Virus record (IMG/VR): IMGVR_UViG_3300025736_000010
Span: 32,001 to 96,000 of that record
DNA: 64,000 bases
DNA from: a virus
Direction: 5' to 3' (one strand)
Made by a program: the position numbers and the translations under genes. Shown one piece after another: positions 1,802 through 32,711 of this stretch. The notes beneath the pieces are model-generated. The model made no database searches, was not told the origin of the DNA, and saw only the letters and a program-made list of their open reading frames with translations. Every line of letters starts with the position of its first letter. Position 1 is the first letter of the stretch.

Positions 1802-2051
1802 GAGTTTAGCACAGAAACTATTTGCGGCGCTTAGTAAGAACAGCGGAATGTACCTAAACGACTATGAAGTGGCTCGCATGTCAGGATTGTCAGAGGATGA
1901 ACTTGAACTGGCGAAAAGCGAACTTGATGAAATACTAAAAGGAAGCGATACGTCAATAACGGTAACAAAAAAAGGTGATAGAAGGTGGAAGATGGTTTCT
2001 CGAAGGCCGAAAGTAAAAAAGGAAGAGGAGAAGCAAGTCGGGTTATTTTAA
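1794..2051 (+). CDS. hypothetical protein (possible winged-helix)
   Basis: ORF with GAGG RBS; helix-turn-helix-like pattern by eye. Confidence 0.5.
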   Translation: MTESLAQKLFAALSKNSGMYLNDYEVARMSGLSEDELELAKSELDEILKGSDTSITVTKKGDRRWKMVSRRPKVKKEEEKQVGLF

Positions 2052-2053
2052 TT

Positions 2054-3148
2054 ATGGATAAAAAAGTAATGGTAATAAGCGGATGTAGGCCGGAAATTAT
2101 TAAAATGTTTCCTATAATCGAAGAGCTTAGAAACAGAGACATTGAGTGCGTTCATGTGCATACCGGCCAACATACAGACCTAGCGATGTCAACGATGGAA
2201 GCCCTGGGGATATATCCAGACATTGAATTCTCGGCGATAGAGCATTCTGTGGGATTCGCCAACTCGTCATTGTCGTATATTTTGGACAAACTAGACGGTG
2301 TTATCATCAATGACATAAGCCCAAGCGTTGTTGTGGTCCAGGGCGACACCTCGACTACGCTCGCTGGTGCATTATTCGCGTTTCATCACGAGATCCCTTT
2401 GGTCTATGTGGAAAGCGGCCTGAGAACATATAAAAAAGAACCATATCCAGAGGAGATAAACAGGCAGATCATAGCAAGAATCGCCGACGTTAACTGCTGC
2501 CCTACTAAAAACGCAATGAACAATTTAATCAGTGAAAACGTAATCGGCGAGAAATACGTAGCTGGAAATACAGAGGTAGACGCCATATATTACGCGCTCG
2601 ATAACTGCGTTCCTAAGAAGTGTTACAGCGTTGACGACGGGCGTAGAACAATCGTAGTTACATTACATCGGCGCGAAAGTATAGGAATGCCAATGCGAAA
2701 TGTTTGCAGAGATATTGTGAAGGTCGCAGAAACAACACCTGTGGATGTAATCGTAACAAAGCATCCAAATCCCGGTGTGTCGAAAATCATCGAGGAAGAA
2801 CTGGAAAACATTGATCTGCAACTTAATAGCACGATGCTTGTAGTAGAGCCAATGGATTTCGTGTCGTTTGCGCATCAAATGGCAAAATCCACACTAATCA
2901 TCACAGACTCAGGTGGAATACAAGAGTCGGCATCGGCATTAGGAATTCCAGTAGTTGTGGCTAGAAACGTTACAGACAGGCCAGAATGTTCATCAGTTAT
3001 AGCAGGAACAAACGCCGGAAACGTATACACAGCGGTAATGAAAATATTGAAATCGCAAGAACTGTACGACGAAATGGCAAAAGCAAAGTGTCCGTTTGGA
3101 GATGGACATGCGGCGGAAAAGATAGTTGACTTGATATTGGAGGTGTGA
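2054..3148 (+). CDS. wecB: UDP-N-acetylglucosamine 2-epimerase (non-hydrolysing type)
   Basis: G-x-RPE-x-IKM, HTGQH, VQGDT, ESGLR, PEE-x-NR, TLHRRE, TDSGGIQE, PFGDG-x-AA motifs; start moved to ATG 2054. Confidence 0.9.
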   Translation: MDKKVMVISGCRPEIIKMFPIIEELRNRDIECVHVHTGQHTDLAMSTMEALGIYPDIEFSAIEHSVGFANSSLSYILDKLDGVIINDISPSVVVVQGDTSTTLAGALFAFHHEIPLVYVESGLRTYKKEPYPEEINRQIIARIADVNCCPTKNAMNNLISENVIGEKYVAGNTEVDAIYYALDNCVPKKCYSVDDGRRTIVVTLHRRESIGMPMRNVCRDIVKVAETTPVDVIVTKHPNPGVSKIIEEELENIDLQLNSTMLVVEPMDFVSFAHQMAKSTLIITDSGGIQESASALGIPVVVARNVTDRPECSSVIAGTNAGNVYTAVMKILKSQELYDEMAKAKCPFGDGHAAEKIVDLILEV

Positions 3149-3149
3149 A

Positions 3150-3377
3150 ATGTATTCAGTTTATTTAGTATATGAAGACAACGAACATAGACACGCCGTT
3201 AAGGACGTGATAGGCATTTTTTTTGAACAGATTGACGCTTATGAATGGGCGGCAAAACTAGAAAAGGAAAGAGACGACAACGAACGCGAAAGAGCGAAGA
3301 CATCGACTATTGGTTTTATTGAGCCTGAAGACCGAGACTGGCGATGTTTTACAGTAGAACATTGGAACGTAAGATAA
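3150..3377 (+). CDS. hypothetical protein
   Basis: GGAGGT RBS. Confidence 0.6.
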   Translation: MYSVYLVYEDNEHRHAVKDVIGIFFEQIDAYEWAAKLEKERDDNERERAKTSTIGFIEPEDRDWRCFTVEHWNVR

Positions 3378-3383
3378 AAACAC

Positions 3384-3411
3384 TTGACATTTACAAGAAA
3401 TGTAGTATAAT
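3384..3411 (+). promoter_or_regulatory. sigma70-type promoter
   Basis: TTGACA-16 bp-TATAAT upstream of AAGGAGG RBS. Confidence 0.75.
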
Positions 3412-3428
3412 ATAGAAAAGGAGGATAC

Positions 3429-3617
3429 ATGGACATACTTAAGTTCTCTAAAATAATAACACTTATGTCCACTCAGACTTGGCGAGATGTGTATTTCGAG
3501 ATGCTGTACCAAATGAAGAATTCAGATGGTGCTTGCCAACGTGCGTTCAATAATAGGATGCGGTCTATCGGTATGGCTGAATTTGCCGAAGATATATCGC
3601 ACAGACTTAGGTGGTGA
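3429..3617 (+). CDS. hypothetical protein
   Basis: AAGGAGG RBS downstream of promoter. Confidence 0.6.
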   Translation: MDILKFSKIITLMSTQTWRDVYFEMLYQMKNSDGACQRAFNNRMRSIGMAEFAEDISHRLRW

Positions 3618-3883
3618 CAACAATGAATATAGCCAAGCAAGAGTTCGATAAAATTCAAAAGAAACACAAAAGAGACCTAGCAGAAAGAGAGATTGATATC
3701 AAGAGGATGATGGGTGTTCTGGCGAGTTTGCTGGATCTATTCTCGGATACTAAATCGCCGGAGGATCTGACGTGGGCGCTTGAAAACATCAGCGAGTCAT
3801 CGACAGATGCTATTATTGCTAGATGCGCTGAGGCGTCGAGTTTGGTGGAGCTTTTGGAGCAGAAGTATCTATTTGAAGCGTAA
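3611..3883 (+). CDS. hypothetical coiled-coil protein
   Basis: Overlaps previous ORF; helical composition. Confidence 0.55.
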   Translation: MVTTMNIAKQEFDKIQKKHKRDLAEREIDIKRMMGVLASLLDLFSDTKSPEDLTWALENISESSTDAIIARCAEASSLVELLEQKYLFEA

Positions 3884-3889
3884 TATAGG

Positions 3890-4900
3890 ATGGTTAACGT
3901 GGCTAAAATAATTACGGCAGATGTGCTGGAGTGGTGCAAAACATACGATGGGCCTAAGTTCCATGCAATTCTATGTGACCCTCCTTACGAGTTAGGGTTC
4001 ATGGGGAAAAATTGGGATAAGACAGGCATTGTGTTTGATCCGGCGACTTGGGAGGCGTTGGCCGAACATCTATATCCCGGTGGATTTGGGATGGCGTTTG
4101 CATCATCGAGGGGATGGCATCGTTTAGCTGTAGCGATTGAGGATGCTGGATTGCGTATACACCCAAGTATTTTTGGTTGGAATTTTGGCTCGGGATTTCC
4201 AAAAGCTACAAGGGTAAAGGGTTCTGAGGTATTTGAAGGCCATCGGTATGGTCTACAGGCAATGAAACCAGCACTTGAGCCGATCATTATTTTTCAGAAA
4301 AACTACGAAGGAAAGCCAGTAGAGAGCATAGTAGAGACAGGTGCTGGGGCGTTGAACATTGACGGGGCGCGGATCGGGACAGAGGAAAGAGAGTACAATT
4401 TGAAGGGCGGCGAAAACTTAAACAAATTATCTCGCAAAGATGGACATGATTCCGAATCAGCTAAGGGCTGCGGAGCTTACGGAATAGGCGCAAAACAAAC
4501 ATCTATCGGCAGTAAAACAGTACAAGGCCGCTGGCCCGCAAATTTCTACGTAGACGAAGAAGCAGCGGCAAGGCTTGGCGAGCAGAGCGGGGAGCGAAAG
4601 AGTTCGATATACGATACGAGCAAAGGAGACACATGTGGATTCCACGATTCTCTTGGGAGAAAGAAATTGCGCAAACGTACTGATGTTGGTGGCTACGATG
4701 ACACCGGCACAGCCGCAAGATTCTTCTTCAACGTAAACCGTCAGATAGACGAATCAGATCCTGTACTGTATCAAGCGAAGACGTCTAGGAAAGAGAGGGA
4801 TGCGGGGTTGGATGACATGGCTAGCATTAGAGAAAATCTAACGGACAAAGAACGTGAATATGTTATGGTGGAGTTGAGGAAACATGGGTTTCTTGAATAG
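3890..4900 (+). CDS. DNA N6-A/N4-C methyltransferase (beta class), piece 1 with catalytic motif
   Basis: DPPY motif IV, GSGFPK, KPA-x-EPI, GALNID, GRWPAN, ARFF, K-x-S-x-x-ERDAGL; no SAM-binding motif I. Confidence 0.85.
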   Translation: MVNVAKIITADVLEWCKTYDGPKFHAILCDPPYELGFMGKNWDKTGIVFDPATWEALAEHLYPGGFGMAFASSRGWHRLAVAIEDAGLRIHPSIFGWNFGSGFPKATRVKGSEVFEGHRYGLQAMKPALEPIIIFQKNYEGKPVESIVETGAGALNIDGARIGTEEREYNLKGGENLNKLSRKDGHDSESAKGCGAYGIGAKQTSIGSKTVQGRWPANFYVDEEAAARLGEQSGERKSSIYDTSKGDTCGFHDSLGRKKLRKRTDVGGYDDTGTAARFFFNVNRQIDESDPVLYQAKTSRKERDAGLDDMASIRENLTDKEREYVMVELRKHGFLE

Positions 4901-5732
4901 CGGATTCTATTTCGGAACGAACGATGGAAGGAGATTTATGAACAATACATTCCCAAAAGCGAAGAATGCGCAAACCGCACTTTCTCATATAGGCATCCTG
5001 AGATTTGTCGAGCGCCACTCTCTTGGATTGTCTGGCATCAAGATTAGAAAACTTATCGCGATTGCCGTGCCAGTAGTCGCCGTCGAATTGGATAACAAGT
5101 CCGCGCTCAGGAATAAATGCGTCAACGACGAATTTTTCAAACAACATAGTTTGTTTTGTATAGCCAATCTTCATGCCGTCAAGGATTTTATATCCAGCAA
5201 TCTCAAGCTTGTTCGGGCTAAGTGTTTGTTGTATGGCATTCATCTCAAGAAGGCGTTTCTTAACTGCCGGGTCGTTGTTTCTGCATGTAATAGAACAGTA
5301 AGTTGGGTTAGTCTGCTCGGCACGAGAAGGCGACAACCTATATCTCTTTCCGCATATTTTGCAGATGAATTCTATTTTATTACGCCCTTGCCATTTATTA
5401 GCACAAGCAATAGAACAGAATTTGGCTTCTTCGGAACGGCACTTTGGAGCGTAAAAGACAGTACTGCATTGTTTGCAAACACACATTTTCCCGGTTTTTC
5501 TCTTTGCGTTTCTCGACTTATTGCCGCATTCAGCAGAGCAAAACATATGTTGGTTGTACGTTTGTTGAAACTCTTTCCCGCACCATTCGCATTCGCTGAT
5601 TGGAAGCCTACTCGCGATGCCTTTGCATTTCTTAGAGCAGTAACGGCCTCCGTTCTTTTTTTTATTAGACGCGCAATCGGACCACTGAAACTCCTTCCCA
5701 CATACTTCGCAAATTCTAGTTATTTTTGGCAT
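4863..5732 (-). CDS. Vsr/DUF559-like (PD-(D/E)xK) homing-type endonuclease with N-terminal Cys4 zinc-finger repeats, inserted in reverse in the MTase
   Basis: Repeated CxxCGKxF...YCSxxC fingers; C-terminal FVVD...VIQFDGDYWHG...D..QD..GLRILRFWE; probable start ATG 5732 (MPKITR). Confidence 0.85.
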   Translation of the reverse strand: MPKITRICEVCGKEFQWSDCASNKKKNGGRYCSKKCKGIASRLPISECEWCGKEFQQTYNQHMFCSAECGNKSRNAKRKTGKMCVCKQCSTVFYAPKCRSEEAKFCSIACANKWQGRNKIEFICKICGKRYRLSPSRAEQTNPTYCSITCRNNDPAVKKRLLEMNAIQQTLSPNKLEIAGYKILDGMKIGYTKQTMLFEKFVVDAFIPERGLVIQFDGDYWHGNRDKFSNLDARQSKRVALDKSQDAYMRKCGLRILRFWECIVHKSPSIVRSEIESAIQETHVSSTPP

Positions 5733-5738
5733 GTGTAT

Positions 5739-5767
5739 ATTATACACGATACAGAACGAATTGTCAA
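5739..5767 (-). promoter_or_regulatory. sigma70 promoter giving a leaderless endonuclease mRNA
   Basis: Minus strand TTGACA-17-TATAAT-6 nt-ATG. Confidence 0.8.
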
Positions 5768-5782
5768 GGCAATGGTGATAAC

Positions 5783-5884
5783 ATGATGGTTAAATACGCT
5801 GATGTGCCAGAGCATTTGAAGAAATATTTTAAGAGAAATTCCGGGGGTGATAATAGTGGGGTGCGGAATTCGCATCCTACTTGA
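5783..5884 (+). CDS. DNA methyltransferase piece 2 (33 aa, ends ...VRNSHPT)
   Basis: Manual translation MMVKYADVPEHLKKYFKRNSGGDNSGVRNSHPT*; N-x-HPT is the first half of the conserved HPTVKP motif; below the ORF-track cutoff. Confidence 0.7.
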   Translation: MMVKYADVPEHLKKYFKRNSGGDNSGVRNSHPT

Positions 5885-6123
5885 ATGCCGTTAAGCCTAT
5901 AGACCTAACACGATGGCTAGCAACATTACTATTGCCACCAGAAGAGTATGCGCCGCGCAGAATCCTAGTGCCGTTTTCAGGCTCAGGATCAGAAATGATC
6001 GGGGCGTCATTAGCTGGCTGGGAAGAAATCGTTGGGATAGAAATGGAAGAAGAGTACGTAGAAATAGCAGAGGCGCGATTAAAGCACTGGGAAAATAAAA
6101 CAGAACAACTCAAGCTTATATAG
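5881..6123 (+). CDS. DNA methyltransferase piece 3 (SAM-binding motif I)
   Basis: VKPIDLTRWL...PFSGSGS...GIE...EYVEIA-x-x-R; TTG start overlaps the TGA of piece 2. Confidence 0.85.
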   Translation: MNAVKPIDLTRWLATLLLPPEEYAPRRILVPFSGSGSEMIGASLAGWEEIVGIEMEEEYVEIAEARLKHWENKTEQLKLI

Positions 6124-6133
6124 AGGAGCAAAA

Positions 6134-6937
6134 ATGACAAACGCAAAAGTTATAGAAAAGAATAATGACCTAGTAGTTATCGAAGTAGACGCAGGGTATT
6201 CGGCGACGTTTCTAGAACTTCCCGGAGATTTCTCGCCAGAAAGCTTTTTCAAGGCAACTGAGGTCGTTGAAATACAAAAACAAGACTGCCATACCTGTCC
6301 GCACGCATCTTCAAGTAAATTCGACAAGATTAGGAAGGGCGTTAGTGAAGATGGTAAAAAACATGATATTCTATATGGCCGCGTGATTGGTACAAATCGA
6401 TGGGAAGTTGCGAGTTTTATGTATGAGAAGGCGGAATGGTCGGATTCTGAAGCGAAAGAACACTGCAAGAATCATGGTGGGGTCGCTTTCGAGAAGGCGG
6501 TGGGGAAGGTTGAGGAAGTGGAAGAGGTTGTCGAGGGCGGGTTTGTAGTGAAAAAGGCCGATCAGCTTCGACACCTTGTATACGGCGTAGCTCTAGATGT
6601 CAACACTGTAGATCTGCAAGGAGATTTCGAGGTACCTCTTGAAGTGGAGAAAGCGGCTCACAGATACCTACTGAATTTGTGGGCTGAAGAGAAGCCATCG
6701 ATGATTGGAGCACAACACGACTATCCTATTCCGGCGGCAATTGTGGTAGAGTCCTACATTGCGCCAGTGAGCTTCTACTTTGACGGAACTCCTCACGACG
6801 CAGATCATCTAGTAGAAAAAGGGAGCTGGATTATAGTCAGTTTAATTAGCGACGATGAAGAATTTGATCGCGTATTAAGCGGCGAGTATTCCGGTTATTC
6901 GGTGCAGGGTACTGGCCAAAGGAAACCAATAGCGTAG
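6134..6937 (+). CDS. XkdF-like prohead (maturation) serine protease
   Basis: LVYGV..DLQGD..EKAAH..H..VESYIAP..KGSW..GEYSGYSVQG; upstream of scaffold and capsid. Confidence 0.8.
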   Translation: MTNAKVIEKNNDLVVIEVDAGYSATFLELPGDFSPESFFKATEVVEIQKQDCHTCPHASSSKFDKIRKGVSEDGKKHDILYGRVIGTNRWEVASFMYEKAEWSDSEAKEHCKNHGGVAFEKAVGKVEEVEEVVEGGFVVKKADQLRHLVYGVALDVNTVDLQGDFEVPLEVEKAAHRYLLNLWAEEKPSMIGAQHDYPIPAAIVVESYIAPVSFYFDGTPHDADHLVEKGSWIIVSLISDDEEFDRVLSGEYSGYSVQGTGQRKPIA

Positions 6938-6946
6938 AGGGAGCAA

Positions 6947-7147
6947 TTGAAAAAGAAAATAGAATATCTAACACCTAAACAGTTGCGTACAAAATTTATG
7001 CTCAGCTTGTCACGAATATACACTTTGTTGAATGACCCTGTTGACCCAATCCCTCATCACAGGATTGGCACATCTTACAGGATTATTGTTGACGAACTCG
7101 ACGATTGGCTGAAAAGACATCATAAGATAATGGGTAAAGAGCGGTGA
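6947..7147 (+). CDS. excisionase-like/MerR-type HTH DNA-binding protein
   Basis: YLTPKQL...SRIYTL...IPHHRIG..YRI..ELDDWL pattern. Confidence 0.75.
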   Translation: MKKKIEYLTPKQLRTKFMLSLSRIYTLLNDPVDPIPHHRIGTSYRIIVDELDDWLKRHHKIMGKER

Positions 7148-7151
7148 TTCA

Positions 7152-7808
7152 GTGAATAAAGAAAAAAAGCGAGAATACAATAAGAGATATCGCGAGAAAA
7201 ACCGCGAACAAATAAGCGCCAAAAATGCTGCTTATTACGTCAAGAACAAGGAGAGGCTTTTGGCCGATCACGCTGTTTATGCAACAGGGCATAGAAAAGA
7301 GAAAAAAGAGACTAATGCTATTTATCGTGCAAACAATAAGGAGAAGAAAAAAGCCTACAACGCAGAACACAAAGAAGAAATAAAATCTTATAGCGCTGAT
7401 TATTACATTAAACATAAAGAGGAGAGAAGGGTTTACGACGCAGCTTATCGTGCTTGCCATAAGGATGAGATAAAAGCTTATAAGGATACTCACAAGGAAG
7501 AGGCAATCGCTTATCGAATCGCGAACAGGGATAAGTGCGCGGCCCATTCTGCCAAGCGGGCGGCTTTAATAAAAGAGGCTACAATAGGAGATTTAGAACA
7601 AATTTCAGAAATATACCGCCAGGCTGATGAGGACGAAGGTATAATATGTTATATATGTGGCGAGGTAATCGATCTTGGAATGCGCCACGTTGACCATGTT
7701 TTCCCCGTGAGCAAGGGAGGAGCACACTGCGCAGACAATCTGAAGATAACTCATGCGCGCTGTAACTTGATAAAAGGGTCAAAGTTGATCGAAGGAATAA
7801 ATATTTAG
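7152..7808 (+). CDS. HNH endonuclease with Tyr/Lys-rich helical repeat arm
   Basis: CYICG..HVDHVFPVSKGG-x-H..NL..H..CN..K. Confidence 0.85.
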   Translation: MNKEKKREYNKRYREKNREQISAKNAAYYVKNKERLLADHAVYATGHRKEKKETNAIYRANNKEKKKAYNAEHKEEIKSYSADYYIKHKEERRVYDAAYRACHKDEIKAYKDTHKEEAIAYRIANRDKCAAHSAKRAALIKEATIGDLEQISEIYRQADEDEGIICYICGEVIDLGMRHVDHVFPVSKGGAHCADNLKITHARCNLIKGSKLIEGINI

Positions 7809-31772: not shown

Positions 31773-32711
31773 ATGGGCGTAAAAAGAGTAACGCCGGAAG
31801 AAAGCGCCTTAATGATAACTGCATACGAGAATGGAGCTACTGGGAAAGAAGCTGCTGCTCTTTGCGGTAAGTCTACACGTACATTTTATGGCGTTCTGAG
31901 AAGGGCTGGTAAAGAGTCTAGAGGCAATAGGAAGTATTCGCTCGACGAGGACTTCTTTGGGGTTATAGACTCTGAAGAGAAGGCATACTGGTTGGGATTT
32001 ATAGCCGCTGATGGCGGGGTTTATAAGCGCACGCTTGAAATTACATTAAAATCATCCGACGTAGGACATTTAAGAAAATTTGCCTCTGCTATTAATTCAG
32101 ATTGCCCAATCAAAGGGATTAGAAAAGATGGAATAATAACAAAATATAGAATACGAATAAACTCGGTGAAGGTTGTAAAAGATCTGAGTATGCTTGGGAT
32201 CGTTCCGAATAAAACTTTCATTGTGCGCCCAACACCGGGCATTTCAAAATCTCTGTTAAGACATTATTGGAGAGGAGTAGTAGATGGGGATGGTTGTTTG
32301 CGTATTTTTAAAAGCCATCGATCTACTGGCAAATTACAGGCACGAGTTGCACTTGCTGGTAGTTTTTGGATAGTCGATGGGTTTAGAGAGTTTGTTTTGG
32401 GGTTTACGAATTCGCGTACAAAGCCATATAAAAAGGAAAACATATTTCAAATAGATTATTGTGGCCTCGGGCTTCCGCAAAATATTGTGTCTGTGTTATA
32501 TAGCAATGTGCGTATCGCGCTAGACAGAAAAGACGATCTTGCAAAACAAATATTAGCATTAAAAAAGTTTGAATCAAAATATATTCATATAACAAAAGAT
32601 ATTATTCTTTCCGCATATAAGGATGCAGGGAGTTGGAAGGGTGCTGCCCGCAAACTAGCAATTCCAGAGACAAGCTTGTGTCGTATCCGCGACAATCTTA
32701 TGGTGATATAA
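31773..32711 (+). CDS. LAGLIDADG homing endonuclease
   Basis: KAYWLGFIAADG and RHYWRGVVDGDG. Confidence 0.9.
   Translation: MGVKRVTPEESALMITAYENGATGKEAAALCGKSTRTFYGVLRRAGKESRGNRKYSLDEDFFGVIDSEEKAYWLGFIAADGGVYKRTLEITLKSSDVGHLRKFASAINSDCPIKGIRKDGIITKYRIRINSVKVVKDLSMLGIVPNKTFIVRPTPGISKSLLRHYWRGVVDGDGCLRIFKSHRSTGKLQARVALAGSFWIVDGFREFVLGFTNSRTKPYKKENIFQIDYCGLGLPQNIVSVLYSNVRIALDRKDDLAKQILALKKFESKYIHITKDIILSAYKDAGSWKGAARKLAIPETSLCRIRDNLMVI

Follow-up and report, generated by a model that had tools for sequence, protein, structure and literature searches.

A probable MobA/gene-60-type homing endonuclease cassette in a phage DNA methyltransferase gene, with a hairpin-associated mini-gap as a candidate site of translational bypassing

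The window, a stretch of 64,000 nucleotides from a virus (IMG/VR record IMGVR_UViG_3300025736_000010, positions 32,001 to 96,000), contains a beta-class (PF01555) phage DNA methyltransferase gene that was very probably (a probability of about 0.9) invaded by a mobile homing endonuclease (HE) cassette of the MobA/gene 60 type. The cassette replaces the variable linker between KERDAGL and VKP, supplies a C-terminal tail to piece 1 and a methyltransferase restart with an N-terminal tail of its own, carries an inverted Vsr-like HE gene with its own consensus promoter, and places a hairpin, a stop codon, and an 8-nt gap inside HPT/VKP, the most conserved motif. A short bypass, by which ribosomes would cross this gap, is suggested by the sequence around it and is the least certain step of the reading. 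The elements concerned are the following.

3890–4900, plus strand: methyltransferase piece 1, an ORF of 336 aa with motif IV (DPPY), the target-recognition middle part, and a cassette-derived C-terminal tail
4817–4897, plus strand: C-terminal tail (A peptide, MASIRENLTDKEREYVMVELRKHGFLE), with 11 invariant columns across four loci
4863–5747, minus strand: free-standing HE with tandem Cys-rich zinc-finger-like repeats and a C-terminal Vsr-like nuclease domain
4884–5786, plus strand: bridge ORF of 300 codons, antisense to the HE gene and in codon register with it
5739–5767, minus strand: consensus sigma-70 promoter (TTGACA-17-TATAAT, 12/12) serving the endonuclease gene
5783–5884, plus strand: methyltransferase piece 2, from ATG 5783 to TGA 5882–5884, 33 aa
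5804–5830, plus strand: N-terminal tail (B peptide, VPEHLKKYF), with P, H, Y, and F, plus HPT, invariant across seven loci
5855–5881, plus strand: RNA hairpin with an 11-bp stem (5855–5865/5871–5881) and the loop GAAUU, from folding and covariation
5881–6123, plus strand: methyltransferase piece 3, 80 codons from TTG 5881 and 77 from the Val codon at 5890
5882–5889, plus strand: coding gap of 8 nt (TGAATGCC), with the stop directly after Thr and GCC as the triplet before the Val codon

Judging from their motifs and homologues, ORFs 3890–4900, 5783–5884, and 5881–6123 are parts of one beta-class DNA methyltransferase. Piece 1 has CDPPYEL (DPPY at nt 3977–3988) and no FxGxG, and it shares 50–73% identity with intact PF01555 methylases of 370–460 aa. 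Piece 2 is composed of an N-terminal tail, a Gly-rich stretch, and RNSHPT followed by TGA, while piece 3, whose TTG at 5881 overlaps this TGA, reads NAVKPIDL...PFSGSGS and comprises VKP, a helix, and the SAM-binding motif I (PFSGSGS, nt 5971–5991). The initial annotation had described a methyltransferase in three ORFs with an inverted endonuclease, DPPY without a SAM motif in piece 1, a 33-aa piece 2, and intact motifs in all pieces; the coordinates and features hold throughout, and every piece-3 homologue retains an intact SAM motif. The order from DPPY in piece 1 to SAM motif I in piece 3 is that of the intact homologues and of the beta class, and PHROG DNA methyltransferase families match both of these pieces. 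In the Pfam search, piece 1 had no PF01555 match and piece 3 matched the C-terminal end of the profile weakly (16.7 bits; gathering cut-off, 26.7), so neither passes the threshold individually; this reflects the fragmentation of the gene, since the intact homologues carry PF01555. The HP(T/A/C)xKP motif before motif I is not contiguous, its DNA being interrupted by 8 nt, and HPTVKP would become continuous only if the gap were bypassed. The exact piece-3 ORF is found on eight contigs and the exact piece 1 on 11, in assemblies that are not necessarily independent, and a search of 50,697 phage records with the nucleotide sequence of the region returned a single 63-nt match only. A predicted complex of pieces 1, 3, and 2, modelled with alignments and without controls, scored 0.21 against a mark of 0.32, which speaks neither for nor against docking of the tails.

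The 8 extra nucleotides between the Thr and Val codons are seen in comparison with the intact homologues P0002 and P0122, which agrees with the stop/start overlap and the cut in HPT/VKP reported in the initial annotation. P0002 (430 aa) has a C-terminal stretch of 59 residues, from EYAPRR to the end, that is identical to piece 3, and P0122, which is 97% identical, reads RNSHPTVKPIDL without the gap. Homologous breaks were identified in nine further distinct sequences, giving 10 distinct junctions with the window, and the finished genomes of the mycobacteriophages Fishburne, Malithi, KilKor, and Seagreen have the same layout; because the 10 junctions share descent, counts such as 10/10 are not independent events. 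The gaps in the relatives are 5, 5, 6, 7, 7, 7, 8, 8, and 13 nt long and fall in all three phases. The stop lies directly after Thr in nine of the 10 junctions, with TAA, TAG, and TGA all in use, and it was kept while its identity changed between Fishburne (TAA) and Malithi (TAG). In the tenth, L043, the place of the stop is taken by TTA, a codon that occurs 0 times among 624 neighbouring codons, so that a stop or rare codon directly follows the take-off codon, as in the MobA/gene 60 system. Immediately before Val/Ile, two junctions have a Thr codon, six have GCC or GCG, one has TCC, and one (L119) has AAT, which is implausible for landing. Only L097 (ACT/ACC), and arguably L106 (ACC/ACG), combines a take-off codon with a matching landing codon; the two codons of the window, ACT and GCC with a G-U at the first position, do not form a same-tRNA pair. 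The DNA pattern CCCCACCTGA-N(1-11)-GTNAARCC was found in 73 stretches of IMG/VR, only three of which are methylase junctions (L119, L138, and L014), and the remaining matches are consistent with chance. An in-frame TGA at L013 (CTT-TGA-CTT) was considered as the same module and rejected because no strong hairpin lies upstream (-8.8 kcal/mol).

The 3' arm of the hairpin consists of the codons (C)GC-CAU-CCU-ACU and terminates on the last base of the Thr codon. The window hairpin has a minimum free energy (MFE) of -17.3 kcal/mol (z=-3.0), and a homologous hairpin is present at 10/10 interrupted junctions and absent from all of about 50 intact loci. The MFE ranges from -15.6 to -27.2 in the nine of nine junctions folded, against a mean of -7.7 in intact junctions (n=73), none of which reaches -17. 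In the hairpin alignment, 97.8% of cells are paired and both sides change in four of 10 pairs, with a covariation of 0.49 versus 0.15 in shuffles, where the alignment was fitted to the model. A covariance model made from four sequences recovers all 10 junctions and has no other match in 632 kb. The G-rich 5' arm falls in different codon phases among the junctions, and selection therefore acts on the nucleotides. The G-U pairs fit the sense RNA only, and a DNA cruciform was rejected because G-T pairs become A-C on the other strand; an intrinsic terminator was rejected because no T-run follows. A conserved, covarying RNA structure at the take-off site is thus shared with the MobA/gene 60 system, in a geometry unlike that of the T4 take-off stem-loop. 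The comparison of these junctions indicates that hairpin, stop, and short gap are a conserved, selected module and not a scar. The initial annotation had suggested that the second break might be left from a lost element, which is contradicted by its travelling with the same cassette, by the compensatory changes that keep the pairing, and by its presence where the first break was healed (L108) or never existed (L119).

The order of tail A, stop, inverted Vsr-like HE, tail B ... HPT, stop, gap, and VKP recurs at L043, L097, L106, and L107 and in the mycobacteriophages Fishburne, KilKor, Seagreen, and Malithi. In Fishburne, KilKor, and Seagreen, a segment of 1.25–1.29 kb that begins ~55 codons before the end of piece 1 and extends through piece 3 is shared at 99.6–99.8% identity between otherwise different flanks, and such a near-identical cassette in unrelated mycobacteriophage backgrounds lends homing indirect support. 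Several loci hold parts of the arrangement: L014 has lost the HE and kept the split, its stop and start overlapping with nothing between; in L108 the halves are re-fused with the tails joined in frame and the gap retained; L119 has the gap without the split, adjoining a GIY-YIG gene; P0177, P0142, and P0152 have the B tail fused to an HPT-VKP-type junction with no gap; and in L096, L104, and L105 the same tails flank HNH endonucleases in another methyltransferase family. Comparison of Fishburne with Malithi gave a dN/dS of 0.10 for both piece 3 and the HE and of 0.36 for piece 1, with a dS of 0.30 for the part after the gap, and all motifs are preserved across 10 alleles that have reached saturation at synonymous sites. 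Neutral evolution of the pieces, which the initial annotation had named as evidence against a working enzyme, was not seen between Fishburne and Malithi.

The A peptide takes the place of the variable linker of intact homologues, and its codons differ synonymously between loci. It also occurs at another insertion point in a second methyltransferase family (L013, L096, L104, and L105). The consensus is LTDxEREYVMxELxKxG for the A tail and VPxHLxxYF for the B tail, which together flank the HE; conserved added C- and N-terminal tails, recurring in two methyltransferase families, are a further trait in common with the MobA/gene 60 system. An A-tail search of JGI metagenomes added four short contigs, and a B-tail search added one locus.

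The HE matches Pfam DUF559 at 21.4 bits (cut-off, 20.6). Its AF2 model (mean pLDDT 71) is closest to the catalytic domain of I-Bth0305I (3r3p; E 8.9e-5, TM 0.81), followed in Foldseek by Vsr (1vsr), so that fold and family both point to a Vsr-like nuclease, while a sequence search of the PDB returned nothing meaningful. Homologues are found at the same position in L043, L097, L106, L107, and 17 mycobacteriophage records; an HE-profile search of IMG/VR returned two already-known loci only. The true start is probably ATG 5732, which would leave the gene nearly leaderless, because the longest ORF has the -10 box within its first codons. The bridge ORF begins with an ATG 14 nt before the piece-1 stop, and its TGA overlaps the ATG of piece 2 (ATGA). 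TTA, CTA, and TCA are all absent among the 13 Leu and 21 Ser codons of the HE gene (P=3.6e-5 given the codon usage of the window), and an antisense frame that is open and in register is absent from all 46 other proxy genes. Comparable frames occur in L043, L097, Fishburne (gp58), L106, and L096, whereas L107 has a broken frame and L104 and L105 have only part of one. The bridge frame has a dN/dS of 1.59 versus 0.10 for the HE frame, by which measure the bridge protein itself is not under selection; this ratio, together with the match of the minus-strand product to Pfam and its fold similarity, led to the rejection of the plus-strand ORF 4884–5786 as a real gene. Antisense-frame calls such as Fishburne gp58 are probably what phrog_25269 collects. 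To our knowledge, keeping the antisense frame of an inverted nuclease gene open is an adaptation not described before.

In the proposed mechanism, piece 1 and the remainder would be separate polypeptides reassembled via the two tails, as are Aeh1 NrdA/MobE and T4 gp39/gp60; that the tails dock to each other is suggested by analogy. The open antisense frame would keep ribosomes on the methyltransferase mRNA, the overlapping stop and start would hand them from piece 1 to piece 2, and the gap would destroy the HE target in the invaded allele, conferring self-immunity as in T4. At the gap, peptidyl-tRNA-Thr would rest on ACU with UGA in the A site, and re-formation of the hairpin at the rear of the ribosome would draw the mRNA through; the tRNA would re-pair with GCC (one G-U and two G-C pairs), and decoding would resume at GUU-AAG-CCU. 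The product would have HPTVKP restored, with the junction peptide NSHPTVKPIDLTR, in a two-chain enzyme. Roles in bypassing are known for a 5' stem-loop and for a stop or hungry codon (PMC5009743; bioRxiv 10.1101/2022.08.31.505936). All gene-60 homologues have matched take-off/landing pairs (bioRxiv 10.1101/2022.08.31.505936), and the codon mismatch in eight of the 10 junctions, including ACU versus GCC in the window, counts against bypassing. Crossing by a short bypass is a tentative proposal, somewhat short of even odds, and is rated slightly above re-initiation at TTGA with three chains. Put more cautiously still, the hairpin, stop, and 5–13-nt gap may together be a maintained programmed bypass ("stop-hop") that is driven by the re-forming stem-loop and tolerates a first-position G-U, serving as a self-immunity device of the HE cassette, with the antisense frame kept free of stops for the ribosome relay.

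A three-chain enzyme is a slightly less probable and still substantial alternative, in which translation terminates at UGA 5882–5884 and re-initiates at the overlapping UUG 5881, or starts afresh after the hairpin melts, and pieces 2 (33 aa) and 3 (80 aa) assemble with piece 1. Separate translation of piece 3 is feasible because nine of the 10 junctions have an in-frame TTG, GTG, or ATG before the stop or at it, some with a good Shine-Dalgarno (AGGAGG-N5-ATG in L014 and GGAGG-N6-GTG in Fishburne); L107 also has an upstream in-frame start with a Shine-Dalgarno-like sequence. TTGA or GTGA overlaps occur in the window, L097, L043, and L108, in L119 the stop is followed 2 nt later by a GTG, and L097, at 69% GC, uses the rare ACT for Thr and thereby creates a TTG. 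The landing triplets are mostly not Thr codons, and of 82 short homologues in the protein collection about 20 have their start at VKP or immediately ahead of it, as gene-caller calls that are not proof of initiation. The hairpin could instead serve classical translational coupling. These points are set against the in-frame gap of L106, which has no start codon before IKP, and against the variable position of the start relative to the hairpin (from inside the 5' arm to 8 nt past it), whereas that of the stop is fixed. Furthermore, the supposed Shine-Dalgarno lies 17–19 nt from the TTG in the window and L097, and HPT and VKP, the halves of one motif, would be placed on two chains, one of only 33 residues. 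Of the multi-chain assembly put forward in the initial annotation, a non-covalent enzyme is the sensible reading at the first break because the pieces are under purifying selection in relatives, while two chains are slightly preferred to three.

The remaining explanations are much weaker than either the short bypass or re-initiation. It is improbable that the gene is dead or dying, with HE insertion and a frameshift having inactivated the methyltransferase and left its pieces as relics: two disruptions in one gene, a possible further frameshift in piece 1 of L043, and the sub-threshold Pfam scores of individual pieces would suit such decay, and they are opposed by the low dN/dS after the gap between two interrupted alleles at a dS of 0.30, by the intact motifs in 10 alleles with saturated synonymous sites, by the compensatory changes in the hairpin, and by a stop that persists as TAA in Fishburne and TAG in Malithi. 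A classical programmed -1 (or +1) frameshift linking piece 2 to piece 3 is very improbable. The window would need -1 at ACU-U, where a G-rich Shine-Dalgarno-like tract lies upstream and a stop occupies the A site, but the gaps as a set would require -1 (5, 8, and 8 nt), +1 (7, 7, 7, and 13), or 0 (6), no slippery heptamer is present, and tRNA-Thr cannot re-pair with UAC. Restoration of one polypeptide by RNA or protein splicing (a group I/II intron with an antisense HE, or split inteins) is hardly credible, as the initial annotation had also held: HEs of this fold are known from "fractured genes", where split inteins flank them, and from group I introns, as with I-Bth0305I (PMC3239194; PMC2677866), yet no Rfam match was found over 3000–7500 at E<=1, no intein blocks or Hint match were found in the tails of 27 and about 12 residues, which are conserved as protein, and L014 has a stop/start overlap with nothing between and L108 has its tails fused in frame. 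An assembly or sequencing artefact at 5881–5889 is barely conceivable; nothing specific speaks for it beyond the origin of the window in a metagenomic virus record, and the exact piece-3 ORF on eight contigs, homologous gaps in finished genomes of independently isolated mycobacteriophages, and a covarying hairpin tied to the gap speak against it.

Very few natural translational bypassing systems are known to us, T4 gene 60 having stood alone among phages for decades. If the stop-hop reading is true, a second, mechanistically distinct phage bypassing family would be added after T4 gene 60. The mini-gap can be used to ask why ribosomes get past a stop, whether by hopping or re-initiation, and with its covarying hairpin in phages from 43% to 69% GC it offers a diverse and simple test bed, which is also available in the easily grown Mycobacterium smegmatis phages Fishburne, Malithi, KilKor, and Seagreen. 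The three MobA devices (tails for reassembly of the split protein, a gap shielding the invaded allele, and nuclease loss or replacement) would represent a general toolkit that lets selfish nucleases enter essential or useful genes and leave them functional. Annotation pipelines call such methylases as three or four unrelated small genes and the antisense frame as "hypothetical protein". No description of a split methyltransferase with a homing endonuclease, or of bypassing in methylases, was found in the literature.

The closest known system is the T4 MobA/gene 60 element (Bonocora et al., 2011, via Manning & Atkins, bioRxiv 10.1101/2022.08.31.505936; PMC5009743). In that system, a free-standing HE likewise splits a conserved phage enzyme gene and adds C- and N-terminal tails; a non-coding gap lies a few dozen codons into the second ORF and begins with a stop or rare codon adjoining a conserved RNA structure; and variants that lose the nuclease, re-fuse the halves, lose the gap, or swap in VSR or GIY-YIG nucleases are all seen here. 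Unlike in T4, the host gene is a DNA methyltransferase and not a topoisomerase, the nuclease is Vsr-like and inverted with an open antisense frame, the gap is 5–13 nt versus 20–50, the hairpin precedes the stop, its 3' end falling at the take-off codon, whereas that of T4 encloses the stop, and the take-off and landing triplets are mostly non-cognate; bypassing and target protection are here putative.

In Aeh1 nrdA/mobE (Crona et al., 2011, PMC3045599), a mobile HE also fragments a gene, and insertion-derived tails on both polypeptides are needed for the active non-covalent enzyme; a similar role of the tails may be supposed here from that example, which differs in having no second break or hairpin-gap and in the family and orientation of its nuclease. 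The "fractured genes" (Dassa et al., 2009, PMC2677866) and I-Bth0305I (PMC3239194) share the nuclease fold and a gene halved around the nuclease gene; they involve split inteins or a group I intron, neither of which is found here. Short-distance bypassing is represented by synthetic "stop-hops" in E. coli and by the proposed 10-nt gaps in the terminase of Streptomyces phage Hau3 (PMC5009743), which are alike in the short gap and in having the A site occupied by a stop or a rare UUA, the latter as in L043. They differ in their matched flanking codons, and neither a covarying 5' hairpin nor a linkage to a nuclease cassette is described for them, the two features that accompany the gap in the methyltransferase gene.

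A beta-class (PF01555) DNA methyltransferase (MTase) is divided among three ORFs in the window, which belongs to an IMG/VR virus record of 112,896 bp and carries nearly all of its genes on the plus strand. The layout and coordinates of the three pieces and of the minus-strand ORF between them, as proposed in the initial annotation, were borne out by an ORF and sequence check.

Split MTase region of the window (coordinates, strand, feature)
3890-4900, plus: MTase piece 1, 336 aa, with CDPPYEL
4863-5747, minus: endonuclease ORF, between pieces 1 and 2
just upstream of the endonuclease gene, minus: perfect promoter, TTGACA-17-TATAAT
4884-5786, plus (MTase strand): bridge ORF, 300 codons, antisense to and in register with the endonuclease gene
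5783-5884, plus: MTase piece 2, 33 aa, C-terminal end RNSHPT, then TGA
5881-6123, plus: MTase piece 3, from a TTG overlapping the piece-2 TGA, NAVKPIDL...PFSGSGS

Upstream of the methylase, a UDP-N-acetylglucosamine 2-epimerase-like gene (1985-3148) was recognized by eye from its translation only; downstream, the interval from a protease-like gene (6134-6937) to the next head gene holds two genes at 6947-7808, one small and excisionase-like, the other for an HNH endonuclease (7152-7808).

Thousands of intact PF01555 methylases of 370-460 aa share 50-73% identity with piece 1, and their alignment gives the order KERDAGL, a variable linker of 0-45 residues, and RNxHPTVKPIDL...PFxGSGS. Two intact homologs define the interruption: P0002 matches piece 3 without a difference over 59 aligned residues that start at EYAPRR and reach the C-terminus, and P0122 (97% identity to piece 3) reads uninterrupted through ...RNSHPTVKPIDL..., so that the window has exactly 8 extra nt (TGAATGCC, 5882-5889) between the Thr and Val codons of the HPT|VKP motif, together with a replaced linker. 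The further claim that neither intein nor intron is involved held up, as the Rfam search of 3000-7500 returned no family at E<=1 and a search for an intein-like domain found none.

An assembly artefact was rejected because eight contigs carry the exact piece-3 ORF (11 carry piece 1) and the same three-part layout occurs in finished genomes of mycobacteriophages isolated independently (Fishburne, KilKor, Seagreen, and Malithi), in which the MTase parts are annotated as separate small genes (e.g., Fishburne gp57, gp59, and gp60). Homologous layouts were also found in the IMG/VR loci L014, L043, and L097 and the JGI contigs L106 and L107. In L043 (4908-6273), piece 1 itself lies in two overlapping frames (4908-5906 and 5851-6273), possibly a further frameshift or a sequencing error of the contig. 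Decay was likewise rejected: Fishburne and Malithi, both interrupted, differ by ~15% across the split-MTase stretch, with a dN/dS of 0.10 after the gap (dS 0.30), 0.10 in the endonuclease, and 0.36 in piece 1, and the post-gap value indicates that the downstream part is translated and useful in interrupted alleles.

The minus-strand protein combines Cys-rich repeats with a DUF559 domain, and the closest structural match to its AF2 model (mean pLDDT 71) is the catalytic domain of the homing endonuclease I-Bth0305I, with Vsr next; the position of the promoter makes ATG 5732 its likely start. The interruption is bordered by two tails, A (the 27-residue C-terminal end of piece 1) and B (VPEHLKKYF, N-terminal in piece 2), both kept as protein across loci with DNA differing at synonymous sites. 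The same pair surrounds HNH endonucleases at another point of the fold in a different methylase family (L096, L104, and L105) and occurs in that family without a nuclease in L013, indicating that the tails move together with the nuclease cassette. On the model of Aeh1 NrdA/MobE (PMC3045599) and of the CTE/NTE tails of MobA elements (bioRxiv 10.1101/2022.08.31.505936), they may help the MTase halves to reassemble.

Mobility is indicated by Fishburne, KilKor, and Seagreen, members of two phage subfamilies: a 1.25-1.29 kb segment that begins ~55 codons before the piece-1 stop and extends through piece 3 is 99.6-99.8% identical among them, with flanks that are unrelated or far more diverged. In KilKor (NC_053209, 3264-5444), piece 1 has 726 aa, ~320 aa longer than in Fishburne, so the methylase that received the same cassette there has an additional N-terminal region. 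Other loci differ in state: L014 keeps the split, with overlapping stop and start, and has lost the internal nuclease; L108 is one ORF with fused tails and a retained gap; L119 and L138 have an unsplit methylase with gap and hairpin, adjoining a GIY-YIG gene; and the proteins P0177, P0142, and P0152 join the B tail to an HPT-VKP-type junction with the gap absent. This range is the one that Manning and Atkins described for MobA/gene 60 elements (bioRxiv 10.1101/2022.08.31.505936). On the strand opposite to the L014 split methylase, and directly upstream of it, is an HNH endonuclease with zinc-finger repeats (4202-4963), and the GIY-YIG endonuclease of L119 (2667-3413), with NUMOD-like repeats, is ~520 nt downstream of its methylase.

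The start of the bridge ORF precedes the piece-1 stop by 14 nt and follows a tail-encoded GAGGA; the end of the ORF overlaps the start of piece 2 as ATGA. An open frame here requires an endonuclease without TTA, CTA, or TCA, and its 13 Leu and 21 Ser codons include none of them (P=3.6e-5 at the window's usage), at an ordinary GC of 43%; an in-register open antisense frame was found in 0 of 46 other proxy genes. Equivalent frames coupled at both ends are present in L043, L097, Fishburne (gp58), L106, and L096, and the frame is broken in L107. Since the encoded protein is not conserved (dN/dS 1.59), we infer that only openness matters; an open frame would relay ribosomes and avoid polarity across the inverted gene. 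Fishburne gp58 (NC_021302, locus 2483-3271) and Malithi gp54, both annotated as 'hypothetical protein', are antisense frames of the Vsr-like endonuclease, which the Seagreen annotation puts on the correct strand. Because the bridge ORF has a match to phrog_25269 at 1e-16, that family is probably made up of such antisense calls.

Ten distinct junctions were compared, read after the HPT codons.

Gap sequences at the ten junctions
window: TGAATGCC
L097: TGACC
L043: TTAAAGCC
L014: TGAGGCC
Fishburne: TAATGCC
Malithi: TAGAGCC
L106: TGAACG (in frame)
L107: TGAGGCGCGTTCC
L108: TGAAGGCG
L119: TGAAT

The gap lengths cover all three phases, and no single frameshift therefore explains the set. A stop directly follows Thr in nine of ten; in L043 the codon is TTA, absent from 624 neighboring codons. 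A hairpin of 8-12 bp is present at all ten junctions; the (x)His-Pro-Thr codons make up its 3' arm, and it ends at most 2 bases from the Thr codon. The MFE ranges from -15.6 to -27.2 kcal/mol (9/9 folded junctions); intact junctions, 73 in number and with a higher mean GC, average -7.7, and none reaches -17. The codon phase of the G-rich 5' arm differs between loci (GGG-GTG or G-GGT-GGG), which places the constraint on the nucleotides, and G-U pairs in the window and L097 are compatible with sense RNA only. Searched against 632 kb that included ~50 intact loci, a covariance model built from four sequences hit the ten junctions and no other site. In the alignment fitted to this model, 97.8% of cells are paired, both sides change in four of ten pairs, and covariation reaches a score of 0.49, compared with 0.15 in shuffles (0/500) and <=0.12 with partners slid. 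The L119 methylase carries the hairpin and a 5-nt gap, and the sequence in the region of that gap is TGA-ATG-TGA, in which a GTG is nested. In L013 (IMGVR_UViG_3300035698_009019, 2380-2440), ~350 nt upstream of its nuclease-free tail split, the catalytic motif holds an in-frame 6-nt insert (SPPYWGL-TGA-L-RDYG), read CTT TGA CTT with matched Leu codons around the stop, a classical 'stop-hop' arrangement; no strong hairpin was found upstream of it (fold -8.8 kcal/mol).

Ribosomes may cross the gap by bypass, a reading given a probability of about 0.4. With tRNA-Thr on ACU, UGA in the A site, and the hairpin 5' arm just out of the ribosome, the mRNA would be drawn forward as the hairpin re-forms, an action proposed for the gene 60 5' stem-loop (PMC5009743), and the product would carry the junction peptide NSHPTVKPIDLTR. 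The landing triplet before Val/Ile is a Thr codon in two of the ten junctions and GCC or GCG in six, which offers tRNA-Thr a G-U and two G-C pairs (L108 pairs an ACG take-off with GCG); L107 has TCC in this place, and L119 AAT. Take-off and landing codons are always matched in gene-60 homologues (bioRxiv 10.1101/2022.08.31.505936). Re-initiation at piece 3, at a start codon overlapping or near the stop, is only slightly less probable: TTGA/GTGA overlaps or nearby in-frame starts exist at nine of ten junctions, some with good Shine-Dalgarno sequences, but L106 has no such start, the position of the start varies relative to the hairpin, and 18 nt separate the window's TTG from the nearest G-rich tract.

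Literature searches returned nothing describing such an element in methylases, and the split methylase with its gap is testable in cultured phages. Among known systems, the T4 MobA/gene 60 element comes closest; the proposed methylase cassette differs from it in host gene, in nuclease fold, in the inversion of the nuclease with an open antisense frame, in a much shorter gap, in hairpin position, and in landing triplets that are mostly unmatched.
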